Source: a virus
Taxonomy: Duplodnaviria > Heunggongvirae > Uroviricota > Caudoviricetes
Strand: one strand, 5' to 3'
Length of the DNA: 7,637 nucleotides
Virus record (IMG/VR): IMGVR_UViG_2877291059_000003
A program made the position numbers and the translations under genes. Under the pieces are notes generated by a model, which saw nothing but the letters and a program-made list of their open reading frames with translations, was not told the origin of the DNA and did not search any database. Positions 1 through 6,155 of this stretch are shown here, piece by piece (positions within the stretch are counted from its first letter, which is position 1; each line of letters begins with the position of its first letter).

Positions 1-170
1 ATGGCCAGCGTTAACATTCATTGTCCTCGTTGTCAGTCTGCACAGGTCTACCGCCATGGTCAGAACCCTAAAGGCCATGACAGATTTCGCTGCCGTGACT
101 GCCACCGCGTTTTTCAGCTCACTGTTTTTCAGCTCACTTACACTTATGAGGCCCGTAAGCCGGGCATTAA
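1..170 (+). mobile_element. insA: IS1-family (iso-IS1-like) element remnant: 5' part of insA only, truncated internally at about nt 170
   Basis: Translation MASVNIHCPRCQSAQVYRHGQNPKGHDRFRCRDCHRVFQL...TYTYEARKPGI aligns with the N-terminal zinc-finger region of canonical IS1 InsA ([51 protein letters not shown]) at roughly 45% identity. After about nt 170 the frame (NVTFLVNDL...) has no InsA similarity. The IS left end would lie upstream of the window. Confidence 0.8.
108..137. repeat. Perfect 15-bp tandem duplication (gtttttcagctcact x2) inside the insA fragment
   Basis: Direct reading: 108-122 and 123-137 are identical. The duplication is in frame and repeats the peptide VFQLT in the InsA reading frame. 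Confidence 0.95.
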
Positions 171-253
171 CGTGACTTTTTTGGTTAACGACCTGAGCGC
201 ATCCAGAATGGCCTTAGCGTTATCCACCCTCGTTGTTACACCGCTTTTGAAAC

Positions 254-661
254 TCATAGCTGGCGACCGCCTGCACCGAACATCGTGATCAACTGATAAA
301 ATTCAGCGCCATATCGGGTGTTATTCCAGAAACCTTCGTCAGGATTCAGCGTCGCGCTGGTGTCATAGCTGACGCTTACCTTGTCAACGGACTTTGAGGA
401 CTGAACACCATTGGTTGAACCGCCCGGACCACCAGCCAGCATCGCTCTGCTGTCTGCCGCCCAGAGCGTCATGTAGTGCGCAACGAACAATCCGGCAAAG
501 TACGGAAACAACTTTTTGCCGGTGACGTTTTCGGTCAGCAGTTCATCGGCCAGATTCAGACGAAACTGGATTTGCGCTTCGGGATATTTGGCAGGGTCAG
601 CAAACTGCGGGAAGTCGCGGCGAAAATCACTTACCGCTGGCAGACTTTGATTCTTTGGCAT
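254..661 (-). CDS. Phage head protein, DUF4054-like (135 aa)
   Basis: ORF with GAGG Shine-Dalgarno about 7 nt upstream of ATG at 661. N-terminal pattern [20 protein letters not shown] ... AHYMTLWA and C-terminal YGAEFYQL resemble the small DUF4054 proteins usually encoded just downstream of DUF2184 capsid genes. Family assignment is from memory. Confidence 0.7.
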
Positions 662-848
662 TTTTTACCTCGTTACGCGCGTCTGTGGCTTTGCCAACGG
701 ATACTTCCGCGTGCGCACGAGTGAACCAGTACGTGGCAACGTCTTCCTCCACAACATGACGGCCTTTAACAAACTCGCGCCGAGAACCGTCGGGAAGCGT
801 GAGCACAAACGGGGTATGTACGTGTATTACTGCATCATTTTTTGCCAT
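627..848 (-). CDS. Small hypothetical phage protein (73 aa)
   Basis: ORF with AAGGA Shine-Dalgarno about 8 nt upstream of ATG at 848. Sits between capsid and DUF4054 genes; its 3' end overlaps the DUF4054 start by 35 nt. No recognisable family. Confidence 0.45.
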
Positions 849-862
849 CGGGTCATCCTTAA

Positions 863-881
863 TGGCCCCGCCAGGGGGCCA
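863..881 (-). promoter_or_regulatory. GC-rich stem-loop (7-bp stem tggcccc/ggggcca, 5-nt loop) in the gap downstream of the capsid gene
   Basis: Perfect inverted repeat at 863-869 and 875-881, between the capsid stop (890-892) and the RBS of the next ORF. No U-tract follows on the transcribed strand, so it is not a canonical intrinsic terminator; could be an mRNA stabiliser or attenuator. Confidence 0.4.
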
Positions 882-889
882 TGTGGCTG

Positions 890-1831
890 TTAAATGCCAT
901 CAACGTACGAAATGGTTTCTTTGTACACTGGCTCGACTGCACCCAGCTTGCCGTAGTAAGTGACGATCTGATACAGACCGCGATACTGCACCGGCACGCT
1001 CTGAAGCGGAACCAGCGGGTAGCGGACGTATTTTTTATCGTTGGTGTACGCAACCATGCGATCCTTATTCCCCACACCACGGCCTTTCAGCCATTTAACC
1101 GCGCGGATATTCAGCGGAACACCGTTCTGGTGATAGCTGATGGTGTTGGTCTGAAGGTACGTCAACAGGGACTGGTTACCTGCAGATGAAACGATGATGC
1201 TGGACAACAGAGCAAACTGCTCAGGCAGGATCAGCAAATCACGCGGAACCACAGAGTAACCAGAAGCGGCCCACGCATCAGACAGCACCTGGTTAATGCT
1301 TGCGCGGATTTCGTCCGGTGTTGAGGTTGCCCACGTTTTGGCAGCGTTGTTGACAGGCACGCCGTCCAGGGTAACAAGGCCTTTCAGGTTTAATGCGGAA
1401 TCGCCAACATATACCTGTTCATCGTTATCCATCTGCCATTTCAGTTGCATACCGTCATACTTCTGCGTATCAATCGGGCGGCCGACCTGCTGAGCAGCCT
1501 GCAATTCTATGACCGTCCAGCCAAGTTCCATCCCCCACAGGTTCAGCGGGTTACCGGATTTGCCGATATCCACGTTCACGCCAGCAATAGCGGTTGAGTC
1601 TTTGCCTACCCAGTTTTTTCCATTCGGATTTGCGCCAGTACCCGCAGCGGCGAAGCTGGTATTCGTCCAGCTGGAAATGTCATCTGCGATGGAGACGTCT
1701 TCACGCAGTTGAATATCGCGGCTCCAGGTGTACCCCACCAGTGGCAGGTTCAGCGTCTGGTCGAGTCGCTCCAGCTCCCCGATGAGAAAGGCACCAGAGC
1801 TGTCAACGGTTGCCTGATCAAAAGTAATCAT
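890..1831 (-). CDS. Phage major capsid protein, DUF2184-like (313 aa from ATG at 1831)
   Basis: Large ORF in the capsid position of the head module (after scaffold, before DUF4054). ATG at 1831-1829 has an AAGGA Shine-Dalgarno about 8 nt upstream and does not overlap the upstream gene; the track's longer ORF begins at a TTG at 1855. Family assignment is from memory. Confidence 0.8.
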   Translation of the reverse strand: MITFDQATVDSSGAFLIGELERLDQTLNLPLVGYTWSRDIQLREDVSIADDISSWTNTSFAAAGTGANPNGKNWVGKDSTAIAGVNVDIGKSGNPLNLWGMELGWTVIELQAAQQVGRPIDTQKYDGMQLKWQMDNDEQVYVGDSALNLKGLVTLDGVPVNNAAKTWATSTPDEIRASINQVLSDAWAASGYSVVPRDLLILPEQFALLSSIIVSSAGNQSLLTYLQTNTISYHQNGVPLNIRAVKWLKGRGVGNKDRMVAYTNDKKYVRYPLVPLQSVPVQYRGLYQIVTYYGKLGAVEPVYKETISYVDGI

Positions 1832-1842
1832 TCGTCTGTTCC

Positions 1843-2349
1843 TTAAATCTTCCAAGAAATTTCTGCATTGCCGTCAGCATCACCGGCACCTGTGAATTCA
1901 GCGTTGGTCAGCACCACGTTTTTGCCACTGACTGACGTGGACATGAATCCACCCAGCGGCACTTTGATGGATTCATCAGTGGGGACGACAACGTATACCG
2001 GATCGCCTTTTTTGATAGTGCTGGCATCAAAATCAGAACCGAGAGTAACGGTCACGTAGCCACGCTTCATGGCGTCGCCCGGGAAGTTCTTGCCTGTTCC
2101 CACCTAGCGAACCATGTCCGGCTGCGACGTGGTCGGATAAGGGCGCACGTAGATCCCCTTCACCTTGTCTGCGGTATCACCATCTGCCAGCGGCACGAAA
2201 AAACCGTCATCATCGTATTTACCAGCCAGGCCATAGGCAGCGAAGGCGTTATCGGATTTAAGGACCACCGGTTCGACGGTTAAGTCCTGCGGGCGAGAGA
2301 CAGCCCCGGCAATGCCAACAGGCATCCGGTACAGAAATACATTATTCAT
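1843..2349 (-). pseudogene. Phage structural protein (~168 aa if read through) interrupted by an in-frame TAG at 2104-2106
   Basis: ORFs 2104-2349 (81 aa, AAGGG RBS before ATG 2349) and 1843-2103 (86 aa) are in the same frame, separated only by one amber codon (cta on plus strand at 2104-2106). The downstream part starts at GTG with no Shine-Dalgarno. Confidence 0.5.
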
Positions 2350-2352
2350 TTT

Positions 2353-3567
2353 TTACCCTTTACGGTTTGCCCAGAATTCAGCGTTTTGTTTGTTCAGGGA
2401 AGCGATACTGGTCATGCCCATGTTTAGGCGCTGTGCATCGCCGGTGGTGGCGCGGGTGTTTCGCCCTTTGGCAACCTCAGACACGGCATTAAACGCCATG
2501 TCGACCGATTGTTTCGGTAATTTGCGGATATCCGCATCACCGACTATCTGGCGAACCAGCGTTTTGTCAGCAGAAGCCAGAACCTCGCGTTTGAACGCGG
2601 TCGGTTTCATCTTACGGCTCAGATCGATACCCGGAACGATAACTTCGGCACGCCAGGCTGAGTCACCAGTAATCGTGGTTTCCTCTTCATTGTCCTCGCC
2701 GTCACCGGTCGGATTATCGTCAGGCTTATTATCGTTATCGCCCGTGGCATTTCTTTCCAGCTTAGTCAGCAGGGCTTTCAGTAATGTTTTGAGGTCATCA
2801 TCACTGTCGCCGGTTGGATCTCCGCCCATCTCTGGTGCTTTGTCCGGTAGTGGTTGCTGCGGGGACAGGTTGATGTTGAGATTAACGCCCTGCGGCAAAT
2901 CCCCCTCATCTCCTGTAACCGATGCGGGAGCCGACTCCACCAGTTCGTTCATGGTGTCGGCATCTCCTGTCTTGATGGCCGCACGCATGCGGTTCCACCA
3001 GTTTTTCTTTTGATTTGCCATTGTGTCTCTGTCTCCAATTGCACAACGATTTCCGGCTCTGCCTTTAGGGACAAGAGCCACATGGTTTCCGGTAATATCG
3101 ACCTGCTCGGCTTTACCTGGCTCGGTCTGCTCGTACTCCGCGTCATAGCCGCACGACACTTCGCGCAGGCCATCTTCGATAAGCTGAATGGCGCTTTCGT
3201 CTTTGACGATAAGGTCAGCCAGCATCAAATCAGACTGCTCACCCGTCCCGCGCCGGACATTCTGGAGGTGCCCGACAGCAAGCTCTTTCCAGTTCTCGGG
3301 ATTTACCAGCCGCACATTCCCGTTTTCATCTTCAGGATGCTGATGCTCATCCCTTCGAATGAGGCAAGCGTGGCCGGATGGAATACCTGCTCAGGAGAAC
3401 GCGTGACGACTATTTCACCAAACTTATCGGGTTTCAGTTTTGGCAGGTCATCAGCACCATAGCGCTGCTTACCTGTTCGTCCTATCGGCACGTCTTTGCA
3501 CAGCAACGAGCCGTCAGCCAGGCGGTATCGGGTTTCCCCGAGCCTGGTCTCAAAAAAAGTATTTCAT
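2353..3567 (-). pseudogene. Phage scaffold/prohead protein, DUF2213-like, disrupted by two single-nucleotide frameshifts
   Basis: ATG at 3567-3565 follows the upstream stop (3571-3573) by 3 nt and reads MKYFF then TGA inside an A7 run (3552-3558). The next frame continues [31 protein letters not shown]...ATLASFEG with no start codon of its own. At the C3 run (3351-3353) coding switches back to the original frame ([28 protein letters not shown]..., 320-aa ORF). One fewer A at 3552-3558 and one extra C at 3351-3353 would give a single ~404-aa ORF. Confidence 0.6.
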
Positions 3568-3570
3568 GGG

Positions 3571-4353
3571 TTATGCTGCCCTTTTCATTGCGAATGGAAC
3601 GCGAACAAACACGATCTCTTTATAGCAGCGGCAGTTTGGCAGCTCGCCCGCGTGGCCGGTCATGCCGTCCAAAGTTGGAGGTGAATCCCAGCGGACGAAT
3701 TTACCTTTCATGTGATCGTGGGAATCTCGGACATCGCCATCATCGGCTGTACGCCAAATATAACCATCCGAGCCAATAGCTATCGCTCGGGCCATATCCA
3801 GCGCGCCCGTTGCTCTTCCCAGTTCCGTTCGGGCAATCAGATCGGCCCTAGACTTAGCAACATCGCCGGTAGATGCAATCTCTTTAGCAAACTGCTCCGC
3901 CCGACCACCGGTGACAACAGCCTCTATCGCTTTGTTCTGGATGTCGTACACCCTGTCTGCGGCCTCGAGAGGCAGAGATTTGATGTACTTGACCTGTTCG
4001 GCGATGATGGATTGCATCACCTGGCCCACAGGAGCGCTTTCCACAAGATTGCGGAGCTCGCGACTGATGTTCTTGCTGTGTTGCCGCCAAACTTTCTCGT
4101 TCTGCCGGGTTAGGTCCGCAGTAAAGTTTTCCGCGACCTTTGTCGCCCAGGGGGTGATGATTTCACTGTAACGCTCCAGCGCCGCAATAATTTCCGTGAT
4201 ACTGTCATTTGAACCATCGTAGCGACCATTTACGATGTCTCCAACCGCCCTCGCTATCCTGCGTAGGCTGGTTCGATACCGGATTTCCGCCTGACAGCTC
4301 CTGCGGTTCGTCATCAGGTTCGCCGATGCCGGGCGGCGCTTCATCTTCGGCAT
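3571..4353 (-). CDS. Phage head morphogenesis protein (Mu F-like / SPP1 gp7 family), 260 aa
   Basis: ORF with GAGGA Shine-Dalgarno about 8 nt upstream of ATG at 4353. C-terminal region YIWRTADDGDVRDSHDHMKGKFVRWDSPP...HAGELPNCRCY matches the conserved pattern of Mu F-like minor head proteins, and the gene sits directly after the portal. Start is uncertain (alternative ATG at 4314) because the 5' end overlaps the portal ORF. Confidence 0.75.
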   Translation of the reverse strand: MPKMKRRPASANLMTNRRSCQAEIRYRTSLRRIARAVGDIVNGRYDGSNDSITEIIAALERYSEIITPWATKVAENFTADLTRQNEKVWRQHSKNISRELRNLVESAPVGQVMQSIIAEQVKYIKSLPLEAADRVYDIQNKAIEAVVTGGRAEQFAKEIASTGDVAKSRADLIARTELGRATGALDMARAIAIGSDGYIWRTADDGDVRDSHDHMKGKFVRWDSPPTLDGMTGHAGELPNCRCYKEIVFVRVPFAMKRAA

Positions 4354-5364
4354 TCTCGATGTCCTCGTCGGTAATGGATGCCCCGATGCCGGTTACGTCA
4401 GAATTTTCTCGCAAATCAGTCATAGCGGCTTTCAGTGTCATCAGACCATCACCCAGCGCCGTACTGATTGCGTTGGTGGTGTTTAACGCCACCGTTGAGC
4501 GATCGACATCAGACATTTGCCAGAGCGGGTTAAACTCAAACGTGAAATCGTCCGGCAGCGGCTTGCCAAGTTCCGAACGATGCATGATGTCCAGTATCCG
4601 CCGCACCGGAAGACGTAAACGCCTCTCCTGCAACGAACTGATGCGATCGTAATAGTTGGCAAGGTCTGCATCACCGGTAGAAAATCCTTTCGGGGACTGT
4701 CCGAACAACCGCACCAGTAGGATACCAACAGCGCCACTAATCTGTTCTGCAAACTGCGAAAGGATGTCATCCAGACCACTGAAGCTGTACTGATGGGTTT
4801 CAAACTTATCCCGCGAGTCCATGAGCGTCATGCCTTCATTACTCTGGAACTGTCGAATCAGGTCGATATTCTTCAGCAACGCTTCATACGCAGGACCACC
4901 AAGTGCGATAAGCTCGCGTAGCTTCTCCACGCTGTAGGTACGCAAATGCGCCTTGTAGACCAGCTGCGCCGCGCCGACAGTAGCGCTGTCGAACGCGGTA
5001 AGACGATCCCAGATACGCTCTACAACCGACATTCCCCATTCGTTCTCGGTCATCTTCTGCTGAAATGGCAACGTGACGCCATCAAAGCGAATCAGGCGAC
5101 TGTGATGAATGCGCCTGGCAGGAATTCCCGTTGCTGTGGTCACCACATCGTAAAACTCAGGTTTACCCAGGTCCGGCCCCATATCTTTAATGCGGCGGGT
5201 CAGTGCCGGGTCGACCATCCAGCGGTCGAGCGGGAGAATCCCCTTAAACTTGCCCTTACCGATGGTTTCGGGTCGCAGCGGGGTCATTGGTGCCTGCCCC
5301 TCAATCATGATGAAACCCACCGCGCCGCCGTAGAGGCGCGACCATTTCAGCACGTCATTCAGCG
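4205..5364 (-). pseudogene. Phage portal protein (DUF1073-like), 5'-truncated by the IS1 end at 5365
   Basis: Reading frame is open from the IS1 terminus down to the stop at 4205-4207 (about 386 codons) with no upstream start region. Position immediately upstream of the F-like gene and the acidic C-terminal tail (EDEAPPGIGEPDDEPQE) fit a portal. Roughly 100 N-terminal residues expected for this family are missing. Confidence 0.6.
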
Positions 5365-5545
5365 GGTAATGACTCTAACTTATTGATAGTGTTTTATGTT
5401 CAGATAATGCCCGATGACTTTGTCATGCAGCTCCACCGATTTGAGAACGACAGCGACTTCCGTCCCAGCCGTGCCAGGTGCTGCCTCAGACTTCAGGTTA
5501 TGCCGCTCAATTCGCTGCGTATATCGCTTGCTGATTACGTGCAGC
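5365..5545 (-). mobile_element. IS1 fragment: terminal inverted repeat (IRR) plus about 180 bp of the insB 3' region; insA-containing orientation is minus
   Basis: ggtaatgactctaacttattgatagtgttttatgttcagataatgcccgatgactttgtcatgcagctccaccgatttgagaacgacagcg... matches the IS1 right end read inward. Match ends at gtgcagc (5545). Confidence 0.85.
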
Positions 5546-5611
5546 ATTTAGCGGGTAATGACTCTAACTTATTGATAGTGTTTTATGTTCAGATAATGCC
5601 CGATGACTTTG

Positions 5612-5830
5612 GTGACAGCAGGCTCATAAGACGCCCCAGCGTCGCCATAGTGCGTTCACCGAATACGTGCGCAACAACCGTCTTCCGGAGCCTGTCATAC
5701 GCGTAAAACAGCCAGCGCTGGCGCGATTAGCCCCGACGTACTCCCACTGTTCGTCCATTTCCGCGCAGAACGATGACGTCACTGCCCGGCTGTATGCGCG
5801 AGGTTACCGACTGCGGCCTGAGTTTTTTAA
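5612..5830 (-). pseudogene. insB: IS1 insB remnant lacking its 3' third because of the internal deletion
   Basis: Region downstream of insA on the minus strand matches the IS1 insB 5' portion and the frameshift window; the C-terminal coding part is removed by the deletion at 5611/5612. Confidence 0.6.
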
Positions 5831-6031
5831 GTGACGTAAAATCGTGTTGAGGCTAACGCCCATAATGCGTGCAGTTGCCCGGCATCCAACGCCATTCATG
5901 GCCATATCAATGATTTTCTGGTGCGTACCGGGTTGAGAAGCGGTGTAAGTGAACTGCAGTTGCCATGTTTTACGGCAGTGAGAGCAGAGATAGCGCTGAT
6001 GTCCGGCAGTGCTTTTGCCGTTACGCACCAC
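5804..6031 (-). pseudogene. insA: IS1 insA lacking the first ~16 codons (no ATG, no promoter, first CxxC of the zinc finger missing)
   Basis: Translation [74 protein letters not shown] is near-identical to canonical InsA residues 17-91. The upstream IS1 sequence is replaced by another IRR copy at 6050. Confidence 0.75.
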
Positions 6032-6049
6032 CCCGTCAGTAGCTGAACA

Positions 6050-6138
6050 GGTAATGACTCTAACTTATTGTATAGTGTTTTATTGTTCTAGATAATGCCC
6101 GACTGACTTTGTCATGCAGCTCCACCGATTTGAGAACG
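6050..6138 (-). repeat. Third direct copy of the IS1 IRR-proximal end (89 bp), diverged from copies 1 and 2 by four 1-nt insertions
   Basis: ggtaatgactctaacttattgTatagtgttttatTgttcTagataatgcccgaCtgactttgtcatgcagctccaccgatttgagaacg compared with the identical copies at 5365 and 5554. It joins the IS1 interior through a 2-bp microhomology (gg at 6050-6051) and ends 17 bp before the sulfatase ATG. Confidence 0.8.
6068..6096 (+). promoter_or_regulatory. Candidate sigma70 promoter inside the third IS1 end copy: -35 ttgtat (6068-6073), 17-bp spacer, -10 gataat (6091-6096)
   Basis: Motif seen directly. In copies 1 and 2 the equivalent elements (ttgata ... gataat) are only 14 bp apart; three of the insertions in copy 3 lie in this spacer. 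Oriented toward the sulfatase gene (ATG 6156). No expression evidence. Confidence 0.3.
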
Positions 6139-6155
6139 GATCAAGGTAGGGTGTA

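Follow-up and report, generated by a model that had tools for sequence, protein, structure and literature searches.

The reverse complement of the window, the whole 7,637-nt stretch of DNA analyzed here, is a 100% identical substring of the chromosome of Shigella dysenteriae type 1 strain 1617 (CP006736.1; locus L011 of the comparison), and the names attached to its open reading frames (ORFs) in protein collections are those of S. dysenteriae 1617 and Sd197. Complete E. coli prophages are homologous to the window over positions 176–5364 only. By this comparison, the window holds a 5.2-kb head-gene prophage remnant, both ends of which have been cut off by IS1 elements (Table 1). The gene order (portal and Mu F-like genes, then the DUF2213 gene, then the cement and major capsid genes) is that of a head module. 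The portal match starts at profile position 59 and homology to intact prophages ends at 5364, leaving a product of 382 aa versus 488 aa in intact portals. The neighboring Mu F-like gene is called as a 247-aa gene in sister genomes, and a sulfatase gene adjoins the IS1-bounded remnant.

Table 1. Features of the window (coordinates of the 7,637-nt stretch)
Feature	Position	Strand	Basis or remark
IS1-family fragment at one remnant boundary	1..175		InsA-like ORF; prophage homology from 176
Major capsid gene (DUF2184/Major_capside)	890..1831	-	Profile match, neighbor comparison
Cement (Gp24-like) gene, full length 507 nt, amber codon inside	1843..2349	-	
DUF2213/Pa193 gp24-like head scaffold-protease gene, disrupted	2353..3567	-	PF09979 match, alignment
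TAA ending the shifted frame	3303..3305	-	75 native residues, 12 missense, stop
T7 homopolymer (A7 on the plus strand), one T over the T6 found elsewhere	3552..3558	-	TGA after 5 codons
Phage Mu F-like minor head/head morphogenesis gene, apparently intact	3571..4314	-	Pfam PF04233
Portal gene (Phage_portal_3/DUF1073), 5' end lost to IS1	4205..5364	-	Profile match
IS1 copy at the other remnant boundary, chimeric, with indels versus Sd197	5365..6140		

Both flanking IS1 copies are chimeric in the 1617 assembly, with 3'-end segments joined to internal IS1 sequence. InsA in the flanking IS1 shows a VFQLT/VFQLT duplication, and several 1-nt indels separate the IS1 copies from Sd197. The chimeric copies look like repeat misassembly in CP006736.1. 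The surroundings of the remnant also differ between genomes: folE/yeiB-like neighbors lie on one side in L010 (GCA_002949675.1) and L012, and the sulfatase gene is found in L004, L007 and L008. These differing neighbors indicate IS1-mediated rearrangements among S. dysenteriae genomes. The remnant is a dead, IS-bounded head module, and its context of decay is set by the IS1-truncated portal gene, the IS1-cut opposite end and an amber codon in the cement gene.

The amber codon of the cement gene is codon 82 (2104–2106, minus strand), which reads CAG in intact copies and TAG, in frame, in the window, splitting the gene into ORFs of 81 and 86 aa. The same TAG is present in otherwise complete Shigella/E. 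coli prophages that carry a divergent DUF2213 allele (L003, L005, L006 and L009), and the 81-aa product is found on 132 contigs, so that the amber allele is widespread. For this reason it may be that the cement protein is not needed, or that it is functional as two pieces.

The DUF2213 gene was compared with intact homologues in E. coli prophages, which are 1221 nt long and encode 406 aa; the window copy has 1215 nt. Residues 16–181 of the intact homologue match PF09979, the DUF2213 family that now bears the name of Pa193 gp24, with an E-value of 2.8e-42, and the protein matches phrog_1961 end to end (residues 1–405 of the intact protein). PHROGs related to phrog_1961 carry the annotation head maturation protease. 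The gp24 of phage Pa193 has been described as a putative scaffolding protein, with a helix-turn-helix at its C-terminus that binds the five-fold vertices of the capsid (PMC11456595). The intact DUF2213 product is, on profile matches of this kind, a putative prohead scaffold/protease and the putative counterpart of Pa193 gp24; no PDB entry matched the intact protein by sequence. A Tn-seq paper on Burkholderia that calls DUF2213 'essential' (PMC8770471) was considered and set aside as irrelevant to the window locus.

A methionine codon (Met185, ATG at 3019–3021, minus strand) lies in frame directly after the DUF2213 domain, with a GGAG at 3033–3036, 11 nt upstream, and the 222-codon frame that begins there is still open in the pseudogene. 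Met185 could be the internal start of a nested C-terminal scaffold protein by analogy with lambda C/Nu3.

The reading frames of the window copy are broken in three. Read from its ATG at 3567 (minus strand), the gene begins ATG AAA TAC TTT TTT TGA, encoding MKYFF and a stop (TGA at 3552–3550). A second frame is open from the T run to the TAA at 3305–3303 and includes FEGMSI in its ending region. From approximately 3393 to the stop at 2353 the frame of the ATG is once more open, and this part is listed as a 320-aa ORF. The original prediction had described these three segments correctly, with a stop in the A7 run, a middle part in a second frame and a return to the frame of the ATG. Its placement of the start at 3567 also stands against the alternative of a first codon at TTG 3506, since the homologues share the N-terminus MKYFF(E/N)TRLGETRY, which corresponds to the ATG at 3567. 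The colinearity that it had proposed to check is borne out on the profile: a 67-aa ORF of the window aligns to PF09979 positions 9–63 and the 320-aa ORF to positions 72–166, with scores of 35 and 91 bits, compared with 145 bits for the intact homologue and a gathering cut-off of 22 bits. The uninterrupted frame of a functional PF09979 member is lacking in the window, where a stop after five codons and a 7-bp deletion interrupt it.

The two lesions are defined by alignment of the window gene to the intact 406-aa/1221-nt E. coli prophage genes of L001 (99% identity) and L002 (95% identity). The alignment to these genes contains exactly two length differences: a T6 run that is longer by one T, and the loss of 7 bp. 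Two compensating single-nucleotide frameshifts in homopolymer runs had been predicted, and this part of the proposal does not hold, as the second lesion is a 7-bp deletion outside any homopolymer. The C3 run to which a second 1-nt indel had been assigned (GGG on the minus strand, 3351–3353) is identical in intact homologues. The missing bases, CGATCCT, are instead deleted between window positions 3341 and 3340 (minus strand), at the junction of ...ATGAGCATCA and GCATCCTGAAG..., a loss that cuts into codons T76-I77-L78 and causes a frameshift. The ancestral peptide across the junction is FEGMSITILHPEDENG, and the junction translation given earlier was wrong. One base gained and seven lost amount to a net change of -6 nt, so the frame returns and the gene is 6 nt shorter, contrary to the unchanged length that had been stated. 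When both lesions are repaired in silico, the gene agrees at 1221/1221 nt with the intact copy carried by L010, another S. dysenteriae genome.

The 7-bp deletion recurs well beyond strain 1617. Among the fetched loci, it was found in L004, L007, L008, L011, L012 and L014–L022 and not in L001–L003, L005, L009 or L010; the 14 loci with the deletion correspond to 12 assemblies, as L011/L013 and L012/L014 are each counted once. Carriers other than 1617 include Sd197 (CP000034.1), CP061527.1, CP026777.1, CP026782.1 and a WRSd3-type draft contig (AXUT01000369.1), together with seven de novo Logan assemblies of public Illumina read sets from different projects. The 87-aa deletion product (SDY_2120/WRSd3_03665) is present on 92 contigs. 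Complete E. coli genomes with a match here number 258, and the deletion is absent from all of them (0/258). The undeleted allele is carried on 18 contigs of other S. dysenteriae assemblies and lies within the same IS1-bounded remnant (L010), which places the deletion after the truncation of the prophage. Slippage between ATCCTG direct repeats 7 nt apart was considered as an origin of the deletion and rejected, because it predicts ...CACGATCCTG and the alignment, read by eye, has ...CAGCATCCTG; the same inspection by eye found no microhomology that would explain the junction.

This distribution bears on the reading that S. dysenteriae type 1 has an intact gene and that sequencing or assembly introduced both lesions. 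An error-prone 1617 assembly guided by Sd197 could inherit errors of its reference, but the deletion lies outside homopolymers and recurs in independent complete genomes as well as in assemblies made de novo from Illumina reads. As the 18 contigs with the intact allele show, assembly is capable of yielding that allele where it exists, and the artefactual origin of both lesions is very improbable. Its recurrence in independent genomes and read-set assemblies, its non-homopolymer position and the presence of the 87-aa product on 92 contigs show the deletion to be a genuine lineage mutation that has pseudogenized the gene in part of S. dysenteriae.

The extra T has a different distribution. T7 was found only in L011/L013, both of which are CP006736.1; the 16 other fetched loci with this allele, Sd197 and the WRSd3-type draft among them, have T6. 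The run is the only homopolymer of at least 6 in the gene. The 67-aa ORF that is specific to T7 occurs on 1 contig, versus 92 for the 87-aa product of T6. Exact-pattern scans for the deletion junction returned no match in GTDB species representatives or JGI metagenomes, and scans for the T7 context returned none in complete E. coli genomes, GTDB species representatives or JGI metagenomes; within these collections and the loci compared, the two sets of scans show both lesions to be confined to S. dysenteriae assemblies. Repair of T7 to T6 alone gives exactly the sequence of Sd197 and of the WRSd3-type draft.

The history of the strain and of its assembly is informative here. Strain 1617 was the direct parent from which WRSd3 was engineered (PMC11413625), and WRSd3 carries the T6 product (WRSd3_03665). 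The genome of 1617 was determined from 454, Ion Torrent and MiSeq data with Sd197 as the assembly reference (PMC4445032), and in another study 1617 was untypeable by MLST (PMC7819885). Comparison of the 1617 assembly with Sd197 over approximately 10.6 kb gives 8 single-base indels and 0 substitutions, and T7 is the sole difference inside the 5.2-kb remnant. The restriction of T7 to the 1617 assembly, the T6 of the 1617-derived WRSd3, the indel-only differences and the use of 454/Ion Torrent data make an assembly error the best account of the extra base. As judged from these comparisons, T7 is most likely a homopolymer-length miscall in the 1617 assembly. Outside the window (at approximately 10938 of L011), approximately 238 bp of a TonB-dependent receptor gene of Sd197 are missing from the 1617 assembly, in which the gene is called in pieces; this gap may be a real deletion or a further assembly defect.

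Homopolymer runs are natural hot spots of slippage, and both lesions could be real in 1617, with a true +1 slippage in T6 that arose in this strain or its culture after the 7-bp deletion and restored the frame downstream. In addition, T7 stands in the deposited assembly, and the MiSeq data of the 1617 project could have corrected homopolymer errors if they were used for polishing. This reading is unlikely given that the 1617-derived WRSd3 has T6; a laboratory pipeline may be common to the 1617 genome and the WRSd3 draft, yet the two disagree at the T run. Nearby differences from Sd197 that are all 1-nt indels, with no substitution among them, have the spectrum of errors and not of divergence, and the T7 product is on a single contig against the 92 of T6. 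Even with a true T7 the allele is dead, given a stop after five codons and a junction that is not in frame. A stronger version, in which T7 is a real secondary slippage mutation that restores the downstream frame and a near-full-length DUF2213 protein without residues 76–78 might be made by low-level +1 slippage (UUU-UGA) or by re-initiation at TTG 3506, has only a very slim chance of being correct. If true, it would represent the partial reversion of a prophage pseudogene.

The series UUU-UUU-UGA-G permits +1 re-pairing of a P-site tRNA-Phe at the stop and formally resembles the CUU-UGA of prfB. Programmed +1 ribosomal frameshifting at UUU UGA could in this way carry ribosomes past the T7 stop, and the gene would be expressed through recoding. 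The site is not conserved: all other copies have T6 or T5 and an unbroken reading frame. Ribosomes that had shifted would run into the 7-bp deletion further on, and a protein without T76-L78 and with a substitution would need a second shift. The chance that recoding operates here is close to nil, in agreement with the original prediction, which had held programmed frameshifting to be unlikely.

The locus is thus very probably the product of a real 7-bp deletion in a dead prophage and a probable T7 miscall, the compensation between them being coincidental. The prophage was already dead, both of its ends having been removed by IS1, when the DUF2213 gene lost CGATCCT (codons 76–78) in part of the S. 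dysenteriae lineage. This ordinary mutational decay truncates the product within the N-terminal domain, after 75 native and 12 missense residues. The extra T, five codons into the gene, would be a miscall arising from the 454/Ion Torrent-based, Sd197-guided assembly. The changes of +1 and -7 would add up to a multiple of three by coincidence, without biological compensation. Neither frameshifting nor recoding is involved, and no functional DUF2213 protein is made from the locus. The actual organism most likely carries one uncompensated frameshift. Pseudogenization and sequencing error had been offered as alternatives for the gene as a whole; each fits one of the lesions, the deletion being genuine and T7 most likely an error, and neither fits both.

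The biology is of minor weight, as it adds one more decayed prophage gene to an IS-rich Shigella genome. The practical value lies in a flag on quality: the 1617 reference assembly contains single-base indel errors and scrambled IS1 copies, and frameshift and pseudogene calls made on 1617 should be verified on Sd197 or on more recent complete genomes.

Compared with known systems, the gene resembles Pa193 gp24 in its PF09979 match and in its place in the head module, where the Mu F-like gene lies on one side and the cement and major capsid genes lie on the other, an arrangement also of Pa193/E217-like modules. It differs in that the window copy is a pseudogene, and no solved structure was matched to it by sequence. 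The likeness to +1 frameshifting of the prfB type consists of a slippery codon followed by UGA, but the site of the window occurs in one assembly only, lacks conservation and cannot rescue the deletion downstream. The extra T has a parallel in the homopolymer errors of 454/Ion Torrent sequencing: the gene's longest homopolymer is longer by a single base, and the neighboring differences are all 1-nt indels. The finding is ordinary prophage decay plus a probable artefact. Shigella pseudogenes and IS-mediated prophage decay, as in SDY_2120 of Sd197 and its neighbors, show the same small frameshifting deletion, nonsense codon, IS1 truncations and non-inducible remnant, and Sd197, 1617 and WRSd3 already have database entries in which the split ORFs figure as separate hypothetical proteins. 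There is no substantive difference between that decay and the window, which is one instance of it.
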